A stretch of 64,000 nucleotides of DNA. Source: a virus. Positions 1 through 26,345 of the stretch are shown in pieces. The first letter of the stretch is position 1; each line of letters opens with the position of its first letter. The stretch lies in UHGV virus genome UHGV-0125821; one strand, written 5' to 3'. The translations under genes were made by a program, and so were the position numbers. The notes beneath the pieces are model-generated. The model saw only the letters and a list, made by a program, of their open reading frames with translations, ran no database searches and was not told the DNA's origin.

Positions 1-85
1 GCAAAGACTTTAAACCTCGTTACGGCTGGCGTGGCAAACGCGACAACCGAGACAGAGCGGTGACGGGCGGAGAGAGTGCCGCATC

Positions 86-162
86 AAGAAAGAAGCCGAC
101 TTGTGATCCCTTTCAGCGGGCATTTGAAAGTGAATCTAGCTCAGGCAGTCGGCTTCTTTCTT
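86..162. repeat. perfect 15-bp inverted repeat around a 47-nt loop
   Basis: AAGAAAGAAGCCGAC at 86-100 and GTCGGCTTCTTTCTT at 148-162, read directly. Confidence 0.6.
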
Positions 163-182
163 GTGTGAGATGTAGCGTATTT

Positions 183-207
183 GCCCATCTTCGGGTGGGC
201 TTTTTTA
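183..207 (+). terminator. intrinsic terminator
   Basis: GC hairpin GCCCA..TGGGC followed by TTTTTT; lies inside track ORF 60..245. Confidence 0.55.
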
Positions 208-379
208 GGGTTTTCGTCATGGTTAGCGACTTTGCGGCGGTTTAGAAACCGACCATTAAAGTAAATGCAAACGATGATCTGATGATGGTAGCGGCCTAAG
301 AAGCCTGACGCCACGGGGTATGAGTCGTCCCCCGTCAAAAAATCGACCGCAGAGTGTCCCCGTCTGTGTATTAGGGAAC

Positions 380-477
380 GGGGAGGCATAACAGGCAAGG
401 GCGCTGGTGTGATTAACCAGATGAATGAGAAGGGTCAGGTCTTTCTGGTCAGCGCCCTTACCTGTTACGTCCCTCCC
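380..477. repeat. 98-nt imperfect palindrome (about 28 paired positions, ~39-nt loop)
   Basis: GGGGAGGCATAACAGGCAAGGGCGCTGG pairs with CAGCGCCCTTACCTGTTACGTCCCTCCC with 3-4 mismatches. Confidence 0.45.
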
Positions 478-666
478 GCGTAATAGCCATTGCTTAATGG
501 CATCCTGGGGGAATTTCTTGTAACGGGTATATCCCGTCATGCTGAAGGCGCTAATCACGCTGGAAGCCAGGGTTATGCATCCCCTGTTACTGAATTGCAG
601 CCAGGGCGCGGTGCGCCGAAAAGCATACGGAGGTGGAAGCCCTCGCCGGAGACGTACCCGGCAAGT

Positions 667-742
667 GATGGTGTAGCTCAGCGGTTAGAGCGGTTGACTG
701 TTAATCAACGGGTCGATGGTTCAAATCCATCCACCATCGCCA
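667..742 (+). tRNA. tRNA-Asn (anticodon GTT)
   Basis: hand-folded cloverleaf: acceptor GATGGTG/CACCATC, anticodon loop CTGTTAA, T-loop TTCAAAT, encoded CCA. Confidence 0.85.
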
Positions 743-744
743 AT

Positions 745-820
745 GCCGGTTTAGCTCAGTTGGTAGAGCGCCTGCCTTGTAAGCAGGATGTCAGCGGTTC
801 GAGTCCGTTAACCGGCACCA
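745..820 (+). tRNA. tRNA-Thr (anticodon TGT)
   Basis: acceptor GCCGGTT/AACCGGC, D-loop AGTTGGTA, anticodon loop CTTGTAA, T-loop TTCGAGT, encoded CCA; 2 nt after tRNA-Asn. Confidence 0.85.
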
Positions 821-828
821 ACACAACA

Positions 829-902
829 GGTAAGGGTATTTTGCGACGTCGGAGATCGCCGTGCTTGGCAGAGGGTTCGAATCCCTACGAAGTACCCTTA
901 CC
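829..902 (+). ncRNA. tRNA-like element that does not fold as a canonical tRNA
   Basis: 10-bp terminal stem GGTAAGGGTA/TACCCTTACC enclosing GGTTCGAATCC T-arm-like motif; no cloverleaf register fits. Confidence 0.3.
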
Positions 903-1241
903 GTTGTGATGAAGTGCAGCTCTTTGAAGCAACCAGAAGATAAGCATCTGGCTTCACAACATAAACCGCAGGAACGACCAATAAACGGTAGTCCGTATGG
1001 AGAACACCCCGTTGAGGAAGAGGCCTGGCCGGAACCGTAACCGGCACTACAACGTTAAGAACACTGGCGTAACGGGGTCATATCCCAATCTATGAATAAA
1101 TGTTGCGTTGCAGCGTGACAACCAGTGTTCTCAACATTGTGGTGAATGCACAGGCTGATGTGCCGCAACTACAGTAGTGCGCGCTTTGCGGGGCTTGCTA
1201 CAACCCTGTGTCGGAGTTCAGCACCGACCATCACAATCACT

Positions 1242-1328
1242 GGAGAGTAGGGAGCATGGTGCTCAAACGGTCTTGAAAACCGTCCCATTGCGCAAGCGAT
1301 GATGGTTCGATTCCATTACTCTCCGCCA
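1242..1328 (+). tRNA. class-II tRNA-like, Ser(TGA)-like anticodon arm, atypical D-arm
   Basis: acceptor GGAGAGT/ACTCTCC plus G plus CCA; anticodon arm ACGGT-CTTGAAA-ACCGT; variable hairpin with GCAA loop; D-loop only 5 nt. Confidence 0.4.
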
Positions 1329-1591
1329 GTGCAACGTTAAGAGTATTTGGCTAATTAAGCGAATGCCGGAAGCAGAACCGGATCACCAAATGCGTACAGG
1401 CGTCATCGCCGCCCAGCCAGCCAAGTGCTCTTACCATTGCGGTGAATGCGGTTAAGCGCACGCGGAACAGTTAAAACAATCCTCCTTAGTGGTTAAGTCA
1501 AACATCCCGGCGTTAATTGTTAACTGGTTAACGTCACCTGGAGGCACCAGGCACCGCAGCTTTTTTATTCGTTAAATAATGGAGTGAGAGG

Positions 1592-1828
1592 ATGCAGAAC
1601 AATCCGAACAAATGTCGAACGCTATGGGTGCGGTTATATATTTATGTCGCCCTCTGTTTGATTGTGTCACTGGTTCTGTATGTTTGGCTTTTGCCAAATA
1701 TGATCTCATCTGACAGCACAATACTTGTATTGTTGGGAGTCCTTCTCGCGCTCATTTACCCGGCTTTTGCAGTAGTCTTTTTTCGTGAAAAAACCAGGAA
1801 ATTGATTAATGAAAAAAACGTTGATTAG
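1592..1828 (+). CDS. small membrane protein with two predicted TM helices
   Basis: hydrophobic 78-aa ORF, SD-like GGAGTGAGAGG before ATG, overlaps start of SPFH gene. Confidence 0.5.
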   Translation: MQNNPNKCRTLWVRLYIYVALCLIVSLVLYVWLLPNMISSDSTILVLLGVLLALIYPAFAVVFFREKTRKLINEKNVD

Positions 1829-2615
1829 TGCAGCGATTATTTTTGGTTCTTTATGTCTGACCGGATGCGACCGGGTAGAACCAGGCAATGTAGGGATCAA
1901 AGTAAATAAGCTGGGGGATGATAAAGGTGTCGGCGAAGTAGTTGGCGTTGGTCGCTACTGGACAGGCTGGAACACAGAAGTTTATATCTTCCCGACCTTT
2001 AAGCAAATGAAGACCTATGATGATCCGTTCAGCTTCCAAATGAGCGACGGGACAACAATTGGTTACCACATTGGTGTAGCTTACAAGGTTGATCCGGCAA
2101 AAGTCACAACTGTATTTCAGACCTACCGCAAAGGCGTGGATGACATTACCGACACTGACCTGCGCCAGAAGATCGCCGATGCACTCAACCGACTGGCCAG
2201 CAAAATGACCACCGATAAGTTTATCGACGGTGGTAAGTCTGAACTGCTGGATTCAGCACTTAAAGATATTCAGGAAGAGATGACCCCCATCGGCATTCAG
2301 GTCATGAGCCTCTCTTATGTCGGTAAACCGGAATATCCGCCAACCGTTATCGACAGCATTAATGCAAAAGTCACGGCGAACCAGAAAACTCTGCAACGCG
2401 AAGCAGAAGCCAACATGCTGCGCGCAGAAGCTGCCGGACAGGCCGATGCCATTCGCACAAAAGCCCAGGCTGAAGCTGATGCCATTCGTTTACGCGGTGA
2501 GGCTCTGCGCCAGAACCCCGGCGTTATGGAGTTGGAAGCGATCAACAAATGGAACGGAACGCTACCGCAGTATATGACCAGTAATACCGCTGTTCCGTTT
2601 GTTCCGGTGAAATAA
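1809..2615 (+). CDS. SPFH/band-7 (prohibitin-like) lipoprotein
   Basis: lipobox LTGC after N-terminal signal; SPFH-type core and Ala/Glu-rich coiled-coil tail. Confidence 0.8.
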   Translation: MKKTLISAAIIFGSLCLTGCDRVEPGNVGIKVNKLGDDKGVGEVVGVGRYWTGWNTEVYIFPTFKQMKTYDDPFSFQMSDGTTIGYHIGVAYKVDPAKVTTVFQTYRKGVDDITDTDLRQKIADALNRLASKMTTDKFIDGGKSELLDSALKDIQEEMTPIGIQVMSLSYVGKPEYPPTVIDSINAKVTANQKTLQREAEANMLRAEAAGQADAIRTKAQAEADAIRLRGEALRQNPGVMELEAINKWNGTLPQYMTSNTAVPFVPVK

Positions 2616-2628
2616 CCAAATAGATAAC

Positions 2629-2760
2629 ATGATGGAATTTTGGACGTTTGCCGACAAGAACCCTTGGTGGACATTTTTATTTCTGCTGGTGGTTGCATAT
2701 GGGGTCGAGCAAGCAGCAAAAGCCTTACGCGGTCCTGGCAAAAAGCGTAAGCGGAATTAA
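2629..2760 (+). CDS. 43-aa membrane peptide with basic C-terminus
   Basis: MMEFWTFADKNPWWTFLFLLVVAYGV...KKRKRN; below track size cut-off, no clear SD. Confidence 0.3.
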   Translation: MMEFWTFADKNPWWTFLFLLVVAYGVEQAAKALRGPGKKRKRN

Positions 2761-2769
2761 CAGTAATCT

Positions 2770-2845
2770 GGCCCTTTAGCTCAGTGGTTAGAGCAGGCGA
2801 CTCATAATCGCACGGTCACCGGTTCAAATCCGGTAGGGGCCACCA
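2770..2845 (+). tRNA. tRNA with CAT anticodon, ileX-like (Ile2 lysidine type) or Met
   Basis: acceptor GGCCCTT/AGGGGCC, anticodon loop CTCATAA, T-loop TTCAAAT, CCA; resembles enterobacterial ileX from memory. Confidence 0.8.
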
Positions 2846-3300
2846 TATTTGGTTGTAACACGGCGTCTGGCACATGCGTCGTTAGCGGTCTGGTGACGTT
2901 AAAAGGGGTATCTTTGACTCTTGCTTAGGCAAACGGACCAGGTAGCCGGAATGTGCAAGCCCCGGTAACAGTGGCGGACCGAGGACTCACCATCCTGGCG
3001 ATTCGGTGTGACAGCCGGAAGAGCACGGCGCACAACAGGAAAAGGCGTTTAATTAGCGTGAGCGCCGTTTCCGTTGTGGTAATTGCGGCTATGCGCTCGT
3101 GACGAAGCCATTTTCATTCACTACGTTCTGATAAGTGACGTCGCCAGGAGTGGCTAACCTGGCAGGTGGAGGCACCACCGCCACAACTCCTTTCAATTCA
3201 TCATATAGCCGCTCAGGCTGTACCCCTTAATTAATACGAAGTTACGACATCACTACCGGTACTTCCGGGGGATAGTCGCGCGTGTAAAAAAGGAGACGTT

Positions 3301-3876
3301 ATGTTAATGGCGAACGATAACGCATATGCAGAAGAAGATCTCATTTTGAGTGACTTCATAGGGAAGCGTGAACGCTGGACCCAAAAGCGAGAGGAACTTT
3401 ACGCCTCATTAGTTCGCAAAGGCGTCAATATCGAAACCGCACAGAGCGGCGATATGACAGTGGTAAGCGTTGGATTGCACGGTGTAAGCGTGTCAGCAAT
3501 CAATCATGAGCCATACGTTGCGTTATCCGAGTCAATGGTAAGGTTAGTTAAGTTCCTGAAGTACACAGAAGCGAATAATGTAATCATTGGCAAAAAGAAT
3601 ATCCCTTTTTCCTCGGCTTTTTACTGGATGATGAAAGGGCTTGATGCCCGGCGGACATCATGGCCTAAAGGGAGCTATATATCGATGTTCCGTGGCAGCA
3701 TTGGCAGCAAAGAAAAGCTCTTCGAATTCTTGCCGGAAGAGGCATTCGATATTGTGGAAGGGTGCGATGTGATGGTGATGCCTCGCCTGGTAATGATGAA
3801 TGGTGATTTACAGGCGCAGACAGACTGGTTTGCAACTGGTGTGGATATTATCGCGACTGACTGGGAGGCTTTCTGA
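3301..3876 (+). CDS. hypothetical protein with Trp-rich C-terminal domain (DUF2829-like)
   Basis: SD AAGGAG before ATG; C-terminus W..G..RR..W ... D(I/L)(I/L)A.DW shared with ORF 11524..12186. Confidence 0.65.
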   Translation: MLMANDNAYAEEDLILSDFIGKRERWTQKREELYASLVRKGVNIETAQSGDMTVVSVGLHGVSVSAINHEPYVALSESMVRLVKFLKYTEANNVIIGKKNIPFSSAFYWMMKGLDARRTSWPKGSYISMFRGSIGSKEKLFEFLPEEAFDIVEGCDVMVMPRLVMMNGDLQAQTDWFATGVDIIATDWEAF

Positions 3877-4268
3877 TGTACGGGACTACCAAATTAAGCA
3901 CTCAACAGGCCACCAATATGGAGTGGTCTATCGCTAACTGTAAGATCGTGTCATGCAATGCCACGCGTACTGATGTGGGCCATAAAAGCACTATAACAGG
4001 CTATCTAGTAATGACCACCAGGGGGATGAGGGTTAGCTTTCGCTGGAAAGCAGAGCAAGTAACGCCATTCAGAGAGCCATCAATGCCGCTGCAGGTTGAG
4101 CAGGATTATCTATGTTTACCAGAAATAGATGGCGGAATGCTGGTGGAGTCTGATGGTAGTAAGGCTGATTTTGAAGCCAATTTGAAGCTGGCACAGGCCG
4201 TAATCAATAGTTATCGCGGAAAGTGGATCGCAAAAGTGAAACATGTTGTTCGTTTGTCTCGCTGGTAG
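3876..4268 (+). CDS. hypothetical protein
   Basis: ATG overlaps upstream stop (TGATG); no family recognised. Confidence 0.55.
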   Translation: MYGTTKLSTQQATNMEWSIANCKIVSCNATRTDVGHKSTITGYLVMTTRGMRVSFRWKAEQVTPFREPSMPLQVEQDYLCLPEIDGGMLVESDGSKADFEANLKLAQAVINSYRGKWIAKVKHVVRLSRW

Positions 4269-4376
4269 CGTTAGGTATTTAATATTAATTTTCTAATACA
4301 ATCATCTTTTTACCAGTCTATACAGTTTTAACATTCTCATTATCATCCCCTCGGTCATTTCCTGCCCGGGGGATTA

Positions 4377-4769
4377 ATGGAACAAATCAGCAGCGCAGAA
4401 ATTGCGGATATCATGATCAGGGCTGACTGCTATCTGACAGTCACTGAAATTACCACTCTCGCCAAAGAAAAATACCCTCATCTCCATGTTTCACGAGTAA
4501 GTGTAACTAACATCATTCGTCATTTTGTTCGTTCAAGCAGGGCAATCTGTGAGCTTGATGATCGTGTTTACCCACGAAAATACTGGTTGCATGGCCTGAA
4601 CGGATATCAGTTCAAGGTGCGTGGGCGAACCCCTGAATATGGCAGTTTACTGGTTAAAAACTGTAGCAGGAAATCAGTCGAACAGGCGCGAAAAGAGCAA
4701 CGAGAGCTGGTGGACATGGCGAATAAGCTGTGGAATGCCGCCGTTATAAAGCGTGGTGTTGCTTTATGA
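4377..4769 (+). CDS. hypothetical protein, Lpa-like by position upstream of terminase
   Basis: position only; stop overlaps pacA-like start (ATGA). Confidence 0.5.
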   Translation: MEQISSAEIADIMIRADCYLTVTEITTLAKEKYPHLHVSRVSVTNIIRHFVRSSRAICELDDRVYPRKYWLHGLNGYQFKVRGRTPEYGSLLVKNCSRKSVEQARKEQRELVDMANKLWNAAVIKRGVAL

Positions 4770-6130
4770 GTCTGGTTAATTGGGAGGAGCACCGCGCCCG
4801 CTTTATAGCGTTGCGTGAAGAAAAAGGGATCACTGTAAAGGAATACTGTGAGGAGCATGGCCTTAGCTTCAATACAGCCAGAAAGCATCTCAATATGAAA
4901 AAAAATGAGGTGCGGTCGCAGGTAAAGACAACAAAAAAAAGCACCAAATCACCTGAAAAAAAACGGGCGGGAAGAGCAACAAAAAAGCTGGAAGAGGGTG
5001 TAGAAAAAACAAAATTTACAGAAATTGACAATTCGCAGGGCGCAGGTTCTTTCCGAAGTATGCCGAGAAAGAAAACTTCGGATCATGAAAATAATTCAAA
5101 TAATAACAATAAGATAAAAGAATCTGTCAGGAGATCATTGCGCGAAAAAATGGCGAAAATGATCCCCGAAGAAGATAAAAACGCCCCAAAAATTGAGGGA
5201 TCTTCTGCAATGATCCATGACGGTGCTGTGCAGCGAGCCACATTGCCAACTACGAATGTGGCTCGCGATATGATGAAGAACGGCGCAGAAGAACACCTGC
5301 GGTTAGCAATTCAAATGGCGCAAGAGCGCGCACTTCAGTATCAAAGCATTGTTGATCAGGAGGCCGAACGTCTACAGGCGGAAATAGACGCCTTGGGCGA
5401 TAAAGAGCCAGAAGGAATGCACCCTGGGCAGCGCCTTCTCGGTCTAATCAGTGACGCGGCCTACTACATGAATGATTTTATCAGTAGGTTGGCAGCTATA
5501 TATCAGTCCGAACAAAAGCTGCGACAGGGGGATGAAAAGCTTCGTCAGAGCGCTCGCCAGCAAGCATTCAAAGAGGCTGAGGCCAGAGAAAAACTCGAAT
5601 TAGCACGCCTACAGGCCGAACAGCGTGGCAAAGAGATTGAATATCGCATTGGCGCTGACGCACGCGCAGCCAGAGTTATCGCCGCCGCTATACGTATGCG
5701 TGAGCGCGAGGAACTGGATGATATCGGTGTTGCTGAATACATCGAGCGCCAGGGTGTCAGCGTCCCGGCTATCCTCGCGGCGCGCGCGGCGAAAGCTATC
5801 ACTCTTCTCGAACCACCTGTTTCTGACGTCAATGATGTTGATGATGAACAGCTGGACAAAGAGGCAAGGGAGTTTGCAACGCTTCAGGCTAACCATCCGC
5901 AATGGCTGGCAGAGCGCCGGGCGGATGTGGCAACCATTGTTGAAGAATTGGGGTGCGGAGATTACGACCGCAATGGCGAGCGTAAAGCTGGAGAATTCGA
6001 GGCCAACGACGAAGAGCTGGATATTGACCCTTCGGCAACGGCTGAAATTTACGGTGATTATGATGCATCTGATGCAGGGTATGACGCCGGAGATGATGAT
6101 ATCGCGATAGAACCGCCGGAGGATGATTAA
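4766..6130 (+). CDS. pacA: terminase small subunit (PacA-like)
   Basis: precedes and is translationally coupled to large terminase; N-terminal HTH-like region, acidic C-terminus; start moved to ATG 4766. Confidence 0.65.
   Translation: MSLVNWEEHRARFIALREEKGITVKEYCEEHGLSFNTARKHLNMKKNEVRSQVKTTKKSTKSPEKKRAGRATKKLEEGVEKTKFTEIDNSQGAGSFRSMPRKKTSDHENNSNNNNKIKESVRRSLREKMAKMIPEEDKNAPKIEGSSAMIHDGAVQRATLPTTNVARDMMKNGAEEHLRLAIQMAQERALQYQSIVDQEAERLQAEIDALGDKEPEGMHPGQRLLGLISDAAYYMNDFISRLAAIYQSEQKLRQGDEKLRQSARQQAFKEAEAREKLELARLQAEQRGKEIEYRIGADARAARVIAAAIRMREREELDDIGVAEYIERQGVSVPAILAARAAKAITLLEPPVSDVNDVDDEQLDKEAREFATLQANHPQWLAERRADVATIVEELGCGDYDRNGERKAGEFEANDEELDIDPSATAEIYGDYDASDAGYDAGDDDIAIEPPEDD
5080..5217. 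other. candidate pac site: five GATC-containing hexamers in 136 bp
   Basis: GATC at 5081, 5134, 5162, 5200, 5213 inside 5-prime part of pacA-like gene. Confidence 0.4.
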
Positions 6131-7638
6131 TGGCTGGCGGGCGCAAGATTAAATGCGTCACCAGAGATCCACGCTGGCGCGATATGGTAATCAAATACCG
6201 CTACAACTTTACCCAGGCTGTTGTCGATATTTTTGGGATGTTCCCCTCCCAGCAGCAGCAGCAGATCATTCAGTCCGTACAGGAAACGGGGAGTAGGACT
6301 ACCGTCACGTCCGGACACGGAACGGGGAAGTCGTCCCTTACCGCGATGTTGCTGTTGATTTTTATGATCCTGTTCCCCGATGCCCGTGTCATCATTGTTG
6401 CTAACAAGATAGGCCAGGTAAAAACAGGCGTATTCAAATACGTTAAACAGTATTGGGCGAATGCAGTTAAGCGTCATGGGTGGTTGCAGACCTATTTTGT
6501 CCTCTCTGACACCATGTTTTATGAGCGCTCCCGTAAGGGGATTTGGGAAGTTCTCTGCAAAGGTTATCGACTCGGCAACGAAGAAGCGCTGGCGGGGGAA
6601 CACGCGGCACATTTGCTTCTAATTCTGGATGAAGCATCTGGTATATCTGATAAGGCGATCGGCGTAATGACCGGTGCTCTTACTGAAGAAGATAACCGGA
6701 TGTTGATGCTATCCCAGCCAACAAGGCCAAGTGGTTATTTCTACGATTCGCACCATTCTCGAGCAAAAACCCCAGACAACCCGAAAGGGATCTGGACAGC
6801 AATTGTTCTTAACTCGGAAGAATCACCGTTCGTCACACCACAATTCATCAAGGAGAAGCTTCTGGAATATGGCGGGCGCGATTCTATTGAGTACATGGTC
6901 AAGGTGCTTGGTCAGTTCCCACGAGAAATTAACGGCTATTTGCTTGGTCGTGATGAATGCGATCGCGCTGCTCGCCGCAAGGTGTTGTTGGAGAAAAACT
7001 GGGGATGGGTGGCAACGGCTGACGTTGGTAATGGGCGAGATAAGTCGGTCCTCAACATCTGCAAGGTATCAGGTCACAGGGATAAGCGGCGCGTTGTTAA
7101 CTTTAAGGTAATGGAGATGCCTGGCACTATGGACCCATTGGCCTTTGCTGACTTCATATATAACGAATGTACGCCGGAAAAATACCCGAATATAACAATC
7201 GCGGTTGATGCTGATGGTTTTGGTTCTGATACGTGTGCGCAGTTGGTGCGTCGTGGTGCGAACCCGGTACGTATTCGGTGGGGAAAACCCATGTTTGCGA
7301 ACAAAGACAGGGAGCGATTTGTTAATCAGCGTGCCTACGCAAATATTATGGCGCGTGATGCCATAAAGTCAGGGCGTATGCGGATAGACAGTGACCCTAA
7401 AACGGCAGAGCAAGCGTCAAAAATCCCCTTTTTACTGAATGAAGAAGGGAAAATGGCGATGATGCGCAAAGAGCACATGCGGCAAAAGCTAAACATCAAA
7501 TCGCCTGACCGATGGGATACCTACTGCTTCACTATGCTGGTGGACTATGTGCCTGCTAATGAAGATATTGGTGCCGAAATGGCAACTTTCCGAGATCAGG
7601 TTCTGGCGGATATCGAAATGCCGGATCTGGATATATAA
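6130..7638 (+). CDS. pacB: terminase large subunit (PacB-like)
   Basis: Walker A GHGTGKS, Walker B-like LLILDEA, nuclease-like C-terminal half. Confidence 0.75.
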   Translation: MAGGRKIKCVTRDPRWRDMVIKYRYNFTQAVVDIFGMFPSQQQQQIIQSVQETGSRTTVTSGHGTGKSSLTAMLLLIFMILFPDARVIIVANKIGQVKTGVFKYVKQYWANAVKRHGWLQTYFVLSDTMFYERSRKGIWEVLCKGYRLGNEEALAGEHAAHLLLILDEASGISDKAIGVMTGALTEEDNRMLMLSQPTRPSGYFYDSHHSRAKTPDNPKGIWTAIVLNSEESPFVTPQFIKEKLLEYGGRDSIEYMVKVLGQFPREINGYLLGRDECDRAARRKVLLEKNWGWVATADVGNGRDKSVLNICKVSGHRDKRRVVNFKVMEMPGTMDPLAFADFIYNECTPEKYPNITIAVDADGFGSDTCAQLVRRGANPVRIRWGKPMFANKDRERFVNQRAYANIMARDAIKSGRMRIDSDPKTAEQASKIPFLLNEEGKMAMMRKEHMRQKLNIKSPDRWDTYCFTMLVDYVPANEDIGAEMATFRDQVLADIEMPDLDI

Positions 7639-26031: not shown

Positions 26032-26135
26032 AATACTGACTGTTGCGCCCTGGCATTATCGTGGGGTATATTTCTACGGCACCTTAGAAAAACGGGTGCC
26101 GGGATTGGAACCCCGGATAATGCAAAAGGCGACAC

Positions 26136-26160
26136 AGACGCCGAAAGCGTCTTTTTTTTT
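26136..26160 (+). terminator. intrinsic terminator
   Basis: GACGC cgaaa GCGTC followed by T9. Confidence 0.6.
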
Positions 26161-26345
26161 GTGTCATGCCATCGCACAGCCATACGTAGCGTTTAGCTCA
26201 GAGATCAATGGTAGTGCTGGCTGGGCTGCCGAAAGGCAGGCCGGTTCCCTTTTGCGCCGGTAGTTCCAACCCAGTCAGTGCTACCGCCATTGAGATTGGA
26301 ACCTCACGCGGTAGCTCCTTAAATTAGCAAAAGGAGGCTGCCAAT

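Follow-up and report, generated by a model that had tools for sequence, protein, structure and literature searches.

The tRNA region and its spacers

The window (by which is meant the whole stretch of DNA analysed, 64,000 nucleotides of virus genome UHGV-0125821) carries near its left end a group of tRNA genes set apart by long spacers. Homology marks the window as a D6/P1-type phage-plasmid and the region in question as the tRNA region of the phage P1 ban operon. The gaps between the tRNA genes repeat a conserved folded RNA domain, designated Y below, which is real but largely a known kind of element.

Bases 1-4500 of the window are 97% identical to ~35 E. coli and Salmonella plasmids, each roughly 90 kb, and 98% identical, over 72% of the length, to phage D6; P1, P7 and RCS47 match them partially. 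Pairwise BLAST aligns phage P1 to window positions 180-1235 (95%) and 2759-3032 (88%), and D6 to 1-1558 and 2628-3400. The P1 record gives the order, downstream of dmt, as C1-controlled ban promoters, a 'dicF-like region', trnA, trnT, plp and upl (minus strand), tciABC, trnI and ban. Both the P1 and P7 records place C1 operators and Pban upstream of the same tRNAs, and the P7 record annotates these operators as controlling the tRNAs together with ban. The window has four tRNA genes here:

667-742, + strand: tRNA-Asn (GTT), called by ARAGORN; Rfam tRNA model, 74.5 bits
745-820, + strand: tRNA-Thr (TGT), called by ARAGORN; Rfam tRNA model, 74.9 bits
1242-1328, + strand: tRNA-Ser (UGA), class II, with encoded CCA, called by ARAGORN; Rfam tRNA-Sec model, 45.1 bits
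2770-2845, + strand: tRNA with CAT anticodon, called by ARAGORN; Rfam, 68.2 bits; an ileX-like tRNA-Ile2 by the P1 annotation of its homologue

An initial annotation of this DNA had placed tRNA-Asn and tRNA-Thr 2 nt apart, with an ileX-like CAT tRNA downstream, and ARAGORN and Rfam (68-75 bits) bear this out. All three of the canonical tRNAs that it counted are real, but it missed the fourth, tRNA-Ser(UGA). Rfam matches this gene only through the tRNA-Sec model, below that model's gathering score of 47 (the gathering score of the tRNA model is 29), and the D6 record notes that tRNAscan-SE gave it no amino acid. It is found in D6, in P7 and in Klebsiella and SSU5-like elements, and is absent from P1.

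The records of relatives treat these genes unevenly. In the D6 RefSeq record (NC_050154.1, 3167-3872) three annotated tRNAs lie on the strand opposite to the ARAGORN and Rfam calls and the fourth (CAT) tRNA is unannotated; the P7 record lacks the tRNA-Ser that ARAGORN calls at 1896-1982. In the rV5-like phage phita32, ARAGORN calls an odd tRNA-like gene with a 4-base anticodon (atcc) at 2190-2288 (Rfam tRNA, 35.5 bits), which adjoins the tRNA-Ser that phita32 has in common with the P1 family.

The spacers (821/905-1241, 1329-1591 and 2846-3300) had been described as free of convincing open reading frames (ORFs), and this holds: the longest ORF is at most 59 aa, and none of ten spacer ORFs, P1 Plp and Upl included, matches Pfam. 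Hidden short ORFs do not account for the spacers, by the evidence of that scan and of substitutions in the plp frame (see below). The description of the whole as a 2.6-kb RNA island stands for the spacers and fails for 1592-2760, which is coding; the island thus comes to ~1.1 kb of non-coding RNA sequence plus four tRNAs. Rfam finds nothing over the tRNA region besides STnc100 and tRNA models, and a promoter scan finds no sigma-70 promoter on the + strand inside the spacers.

A repeated motif, ATTG(T/C)GGTGAATGC, which the initial annotation had picked out, is genuine (1136-1149 and 1436-1449) and belongs to an old duplication of ~300 nt (1041-1241 against 1323-1560, 71% identity). This duplication includes a copy of the tRNA-Ser 3' end, located at the start of the second of the units described next.

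Tandem X-Y units

Folding and comparison resolve the spacers into tandem units, in each of which a long hairpin of ~19-22 bp, X, leads directly into Y, a closed domain of several helices. Y is built of a closing helix P1, a joining GAAU, the two hairpins P2 and P4 with a variable centre between them, and then hairpin P5, which carries the conserved sequence GGAGGCACC; its 5' strand is the motif GTTGyGGTGAAT. (Helix P1 is distinguished throughout from phage P1.) Two covariance models served for scoring: R1, built from Y2 orthologues, one kilR leader and five STnc100 cores, and R2, built only from chromosomal prophage copies of other species. Minimum free energy (MFE) is given as a z-score. The units are:

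822-908, + strand: X0 of unit 0, directly after tRNA-Thr; outer stem ~21 bp; MFE -40.8 kcal/mol, z -5.5
903-960, + strand: Y0 of unit 0, a small closed domain in which GUUGUGA pairs with UCACAAC; also in a Klebsiella P1-like phage
1047-1142, + strand: X1 of unit 1, ~19 bp by folding; z -3.0; pairs conserved among relatives
1136-1237, + strand: Y1 of unit 1, a diverged copy; R1 17.4 bits, R2 17.8 bits, E ~0.02; third-best match in the 64 kb
1330-1436, + strand: X2 of unit 2, trailing tRNA-Ser; 15-bp stem (1338-1352 with 1419-1433); z -3.1
1436-1560, + strand: Y2 of unit 2, the full STnc100-core/dicB-leader domain (helices P1, P2, P4, P5); Rfam STnc100 39.5 bits, E 3e-6; R2 94.1 bits, E 5e-21
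3031-3078, + strand: X3 of unit 3, ~19 bp, exactly at the end of homology to phage P1; z -3.7
3073-3187, + strand: Y3 of unit 3, a third copy with a closed multi-hairpin fold; R1 35.4 bits (E 1e-6), R2 40.3 bits (E 6e-8)

Over the whole 64 kb, R1 reports Y2, Y3 and Y1 only, and the next-best R2 match after these three scores 9.6 bits. Y3 and Y1 were in neither training set, and with both models they are the best non-training matches on either strand. By their R2 scores Y2 and Y3 belong firmly to the family. Y1 is marginal and diverged; the duplication speaks for its membership, as does covariation within the copy itself, in which relatives show covarying helices P1 and P2, keep P5 where the alignment is reliable, and have three variants of the interior. 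Y3 is conserved in D6-type plasmids. As to position, one copy lies upstream of a tRNA (the 3' end of Y1 is 4 nt before tRNA-Ser) and two lie upstream of gene cassettes; Y2 is followed by a run of six T and ends 34 nt before the start of a 78-aa ORF.

In the predicted folds the outermost pairs of X and helix P1 of the next Y compete, in each unit, for the same GUUGUG bases (in unit 1, the outer 6 bp of X1 and helix P1 of Y1 compete for 1136-1142). The X hairpins change in sequence and keep their pairing. The outer stem of X0 covaries (GGGUA/UACCC becomes GAGCA/UGCUC), and its interior, which contains the T-loop-like GGTTCGAATCC, is replaced in P7, in the relative Ro157 and in one Salmonella plasmid. 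In rV5-like virulent phages tRNA-Ser is kept, the X2 interior is 82% identical and the outer stem is wholly replaced, still complementary. In a Klebsiella P1-like phage, Asn is followed by X0, Y0, Ser and then an X with a 19-bp stem of other sequence. D6 has one more X-Y unit just upstream of the point at which the window starts. Within the window, a long inverted repeat upstream of tRNA-Asn (380-476; 27-nt arms, 81% complementary, AACAGGCAAGGGCG ... CGCCCTTACCTGTT) forms a stem that resembles the X hairpins.

Rho would be expected to act on a transcript that goes untranslated for ~1 kb, and the units might on that account be antitermination sites allowing read-through, comparable with λ nut (boxA and boxB) or HK022 put. 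The 3' strand of X2, UGCUCUUA, does read as boxA-like and is followed by a small hairpin. That boxA-like sequence is, however, base-paired inside the X2 stem and occurs in some copies only, and no N-like gene is seen nearby; antitermination is accordingly a highly improbable function. Direct identity with HK022 put or λ nut was tried and rejected (the best R1 match in HK022 scores 9.2 bits, E 1.3, and UGCUCUUA is base-paired).

Conservation of pairing

Across eight P1-type genomes, pairing over 109 predicted pairs stands at 95.7%, and 13 pairs show compensatory changes; none of 500 shuffles reaches 95.7%, and sliding the partners by 1-3 columns lowers the figure to 34-43%. The breadth of Y beyond these genomes permits a wider comparison. 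Alignment A2, which combines Y2 orthologues, the kilR leader and STnc100 cores, has helices P1, P2 and P5 100% paired, with 8 compensatory pairs. Alignment A6, of 128 distinct sequences, is 95.1% paired with compensatory changes in 22 of 27 pairs (0 of 500 shuffles as high; slid controls 37-50%), with the qualification that this alignment was fitted to the model and that P5 was fixed by the search pattern. Covariation across relatives, which the initial annotation had put forward as a check, is thus present in both the P1-type set and the wider Y set, and its suggestion that the spacers encode processed stable RNAs or leaders is supported, in that these alignments argue for a structured and conserved RNA.

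The same comparisons bear on the possibility that the spacers are functionless evolutionary debris (decayed tRNAs, duplication remnants, recombination scars) conserved by recent kinship only. Some features have that look: unit 1 starts with the copy of the tRNA-Ser 3' end, the interior of X0 with its T-loop-like sequence is replaced in relatives, the ends of modules are mosaic junctions (1558 and 3032), and SSU5-like plasmids make do with a compact Asn-Thr-Ser array that has no spacer. But the helices stay paired through compensatory changes, X0 and X2 have outer stems that were fully replaced and are yet complementary, even in an unrelated virulent phage, and Y persists across families of Enterobacterales. 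Debris is on this evidence distinctly unlikely.

Relation of Y to known RNAs

By model matching and shared structure, Y is the core of the Rfam family STnc100 (RF02076; related to PasD) and is also the dicF-dicB spacer of the E. coli K-12 prophage Qin. The Rfam match of Y2 covers model positions 31-147 of 206, and the equivalent sites of the window, D6, P1, P7 and Ro157 all give sub-threshold STnc100 matches of 33-43 bits over these same positions; Y1 and Y3 are not reported by the Rfam model at E up to 1. Bona fide STnc100 (in Stx phages, 150-208 bits over model positions 1-206) consists of a 5' tail, the Y core and its own terminator. The elements here extend a known RNA family with new, sub-threshold members, arranged in a new way.

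The K-12 copy, at 102.8 bits, fills the gap between dicF and dicB, leaving 20 nt on the dicF side and 28 nt ahead of the dicB start. The interval from the 3' end of Y to the start codon of the gene that follows is 34 nt here, 34 nt at P1 tciA, 35 nt at kilR (in a Rac-like phage-plasmid) and 28 nt at dicB.

A pattern scan of species-representative genomes finds at least 120 DNA stretches with Y, nearly all of them of Enterobacterales genera, and R1 applied to these listed stretches reports 137 copies in 100 of them, often in tandem arrays of 3-5. What follows Y in these other genomes varies: a small ORF (DicB, KilR, a lipoprotein, Rha/Ash) 33-43 nt away, a terminator, or another Y. Among the matches listed, 22 of 71 downstream ORFs start 30-49 nt after Y. 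A few copies lie directly before a tRNA (CAT, Thr-UGU, Arg-UCU). Adjacency to tRNAs as a general property of Y was considered and dropped, being seen at only ~5 of 120 loci among the matches listed.

Pantoea, Citrobacter and other genomes supply examples of the arrays of 3-5 Y (6400-7018; 4137-4755 and 5821-5927; 3741-5460, each in a separate stretch), and in Citrobacter braakii CAT and Thr tRNAs, together with degenerate tRNA-like sequences, are interspersed among the Y copies of an array.

STnc100 and PasD are described in the literature as expressed, Hfq-associated prophage small RNAs (sRNAs), PasD with many partners in RIL-seq (sequencing of ligated interacting RNAs). These properties raise the alternative that the Y copies act mainly in trans, as Hfq-dependent base-pairing sRNAs that would be freed from the precursor and regulate host or phage mRNAs, rather than in cis on the genes downstream. 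The rho-independent terminators that follow many Y copies elsewhere, which is the format of a free-standing sRNA, and the run of six T after Y2 also speak for it. On the other hand, P1-type copies match the structured core only (31-147), without the STnc100 5' tail and terminator; the T-run after Y2 is part of a swapped cargo segment, is absent in D6, P7 and P1, and is not called by a terminator scan; and Y1 abuts a tRNA while Y2 and Y3 abut coding regions. We think a mainly trans-acting role rather unlikely.

The plp and upl reading frames

In the P1 record, plp (125 aa) and upl (63 aa) lie antisense over X0-Y1. Were this annotation correct, the spacers would be protein-coding on the minus strand. 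The P1 reference annotation itself is the evidence for it, along with an open plp frame over the conserved core in some relatives (counted below). Against it, plp has a TTG start, extends into tRNA-Thr on the opposite strand, encodes a Cys-rich product without a Pfam match, and has termini that differ wherever the interiors of X0 and Y1 have been replaced. At 12 variable sites in the frame, 5 changes are synonymous and 7 non-synonymous. Two of these 7 are nonsense changes independent of each other: this window has one, and the Salmonella and Ro157 relatives have the other in common. (The test for an intact ORF and for selection covered plp, and the Pfam scan covered both Plp and Upl.) No gene is annotated here in the D6 record, nor in most of the plasmid records listed. 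The nonsense changes imply that plp at least is probably spurious; we regard plp, and probably upl as well, as spurious coding sequences (CDSs), and protein-coding spacers as very improbable.

A probable processed early transcript

What the tRNAs and the X-Y units might do together is suggested by the dicBF transcript of K-12. Ragunathan et al. report that RNase III acting on this transcript gives the 5' end of a 190-nt DicF species and that RNase E gives the 53-nt form. Counting 190 nt back from the DicF 3' end leads to the 3' strand of a ~22-bp hairpin (NC_000913.3, 1649172-1649257), and X3 resembles this hairpin, which lies upstream of dicF (0 of 1000 shuffles score as high). From the position of the K-12 hairpin and its likeness to X3 we infer, by analogy, that the X hairpins may be RNase III sites.

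One long + strand early transcript would most likely cover the whole region. RNase III would cut it in the X stems and RNase P at the tRNA 5' ends, and RNase E would probably also take part in release. The products would be Y-headed RNAs: Y1 alone, and mRNAs beginning with Y2 or Y3. The compact Y could then be thought of as a stable 5' leader, insulating or stabilising downstream accessory genes, and it may possibly exist also as a free sRNA of the Hfq type. The reading that we favour, at a probability of about 0.6, is accordingly that the region, the counterpart of the C1-repressed ban operon of P1, specifies an early-operon precursor with modular X-Y units whose Y-headed RNAs would serve as leaders, and that plp, probably with upl, is an annotation artefact.

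Several observations weigh against it. Conservation among the P1-type genomes could largely reflect recent common ancestry. Y2, at 39.5 bits, is below the STnc100 gathering score of 47, Y1 is weak (E ~0.02), and the MFE z-scores of the Y copies taken alone are unremarkable, -0.9 to -1.9. X-Y coupling is not a general rule: 116 other Y copies have upstream regions whose degree of structure does not exceed that of control regions (p = 0.65), and X is specific to P1-type and dicBF-type copies. The K-12 RNase III site was located by a count along RNA lengths. In 5 of 8 relatives the plp frame is uninterrupted over the conserved core. The operon promoter presumably lies outside the window, and the P1 C1-operator consensus has no match in the window or in D6, as would be expected if the immunity type differs.

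A broader proposal, speculative and on balance unlikely, is that Y goes beyond a single sRNA family, temperate enterobacterial phages having in it a general and portable RNA cassette that acts in cis. Y would be a five-helix junction with the arm topology of a class II tRNA (P5 stacked on helix P1 like the T arm on the acceptor), occurring in arrays of 3-5 and left by processing at the 5' end of tRNA precursors and accessory mRNAs, and would constitute a new 'insulator/stabiliser' or nuclease-decoy class.

If the favoured reading of a processed precursor is right, a structured RNA replaces two long-standing P1 'genes of unknown function', plp and upl. One covarying RNA domain found across Enterobacterales links STnc100/PasD sRNAs, the K-12 dicF-dicB spacer and the P1 tRNA region, which until now have been treated separately. 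The suggested role of Y would be that of a 5' head of processed tRNA precursors and of accessory-gene mRNAs, the genes concerned being those of an SPFH protein, a Tad2-like anti-defence candidate, the TerB-like TciA, DicB and KilR.

Cargo cassettes and neighbouring features

The remaining features of the region are as follows:

903-1046, + strand: nearly invariant segment, with almost no substitutions in 8 relatives whose flanks are variable
1592-2760, + strand: exchangeable cargo cassette, comprising a 78-aa membrane protein, an SPFH/Band 7 lipoprotein (1809-2615; Pfam Band_7, 3e-30) and a 43-aa ORF
2846-3030, + strand: conserved untranslated trailer of the CAT tRNA, with nearly invariant blocks in 8 relatives; common to the P1/P7 ban leader
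3187-3300, + strand: leader of a Tad2-like ORF; MFE z -2.6; both pairing strands conserved

The cargo between Y2 and the CAT tRNA (1558-2630) is swapped among relatives: membrane protein and SPFH protein here and in Ro157, tciA/tciB in D6, P1 and P7, and the 43-aa ORF as the only cargo in two plasmids. Its breakpoint is exactly at the 3' end of Y2, and the mosaic junctions at 1558 and 3032 coincide with module ends. Since Y ends exactly at cargo-swap junctions, it may also provide homology for the exchange of genes between phages.

The leader of the Tad2-like ORF has a predicted pairing between CUCCUUU (3187-3193) and the Shine-Dalgarno region (3288-3294) of ORF 3301. A Tad2-like domain (Thoeris anti-defence 2; PF11195, E 1e-9) is present in this ORF (3301-3876), which lies just beyond Y3; after it come a 130-aa ORF and then Lpa, a late-promoter activator (4377-4769). 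The trailer at 2846-3030 has no convincing fold (its MFE z-scores are positive) and no Rfam match.

The nearly invariant segment contains, at 1008-1019, the 12-nt motif CCCCGTTGAGGA, common to the 5' part of the K-12 DicF precursor; the match is weak, equalled in 6 of 1000 shuffles. Homology of 903-1053 to that part of the precursor was rejected, this 12-nt exact match being all that there is, and is at most a weak lead. With the Rfam DicF model the window gives no match (E up to 1), and P1 and D6 give none either (E up to 0.5); identification of the P1 'dicF-like region' with DicF was dropped for want of such a match. Window positions 85-206 overlap that annotated region. Here a 17-bp inverted repeat without mismatches (85-101 with 147-163) precedes a hairpin and T-run like those of an intrinsic terminator (183-206), and a distinct small RNA may lie here, at the operon's head. 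Far downstream, at 26079-26291, Rfam matches isrK (62.5 bits) and C4 antisense RNA (76.7 bits), both above gathering score, which presumably marks the P1-family immunity region of immI type.

Comparison with known systems

The region is orthologous to the tRNA region of the P1 ban operon, from which it differs in adding tRNA-Ser and Y3 and in carrying a membrane-protein and SPFH cassette in place of tciABC. Here the Tad2-like gene comes next, where P1 has ban, and the X/Y RNA region is read as minus-strand CDSs in the P1 record.

The dicBF operon resembles the element in having a full Y at a like distance from a start codon, and in the long hairpin that precedes the closed domain; both are repressor-controlled early operons with host-directed accessory genes. 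The element has tRNAs instead of DicF, and similarity of primary sequence outside Y is slight.

With STnc100 and PasD, Y has in common a core consisting of the closing helix, GGUGAAU, P2, P4 and the CNGGAGGCACCNGG hairpin. Compensatory changes separate these RNAs and the P1-type copies into two clades, both on temperate enterobacterial phages. In contrast with STnc100, the P1-type copies lack the 5' tail (positions 1-30) and the dedicated rho-independent terminator (~170-200), and here three copies occur in 2 kb, interleaved with tRNAs and placed directly before ORFs.

Structured non-tRNA RNAs that are co-transcribed with tRNAs and released by processing are also represented by the stable RNAs of the T4 tRNA cluster and by the rtT RNA of E. 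coli tyrT. To these the spacers show no detected relationship in sequence or structure, the Rfam matches being to STnc100 and tRNA models only. The tyrT repeats duplicate a tRNA 3' end plus trailer, and resemble unit 1 in copying a tRNA 3' end. The T4 tRNA region, to which the initial annotation had likened these spacers, is an analogy only; the actual relatives are STnc100/PasD and the dicBF leader.

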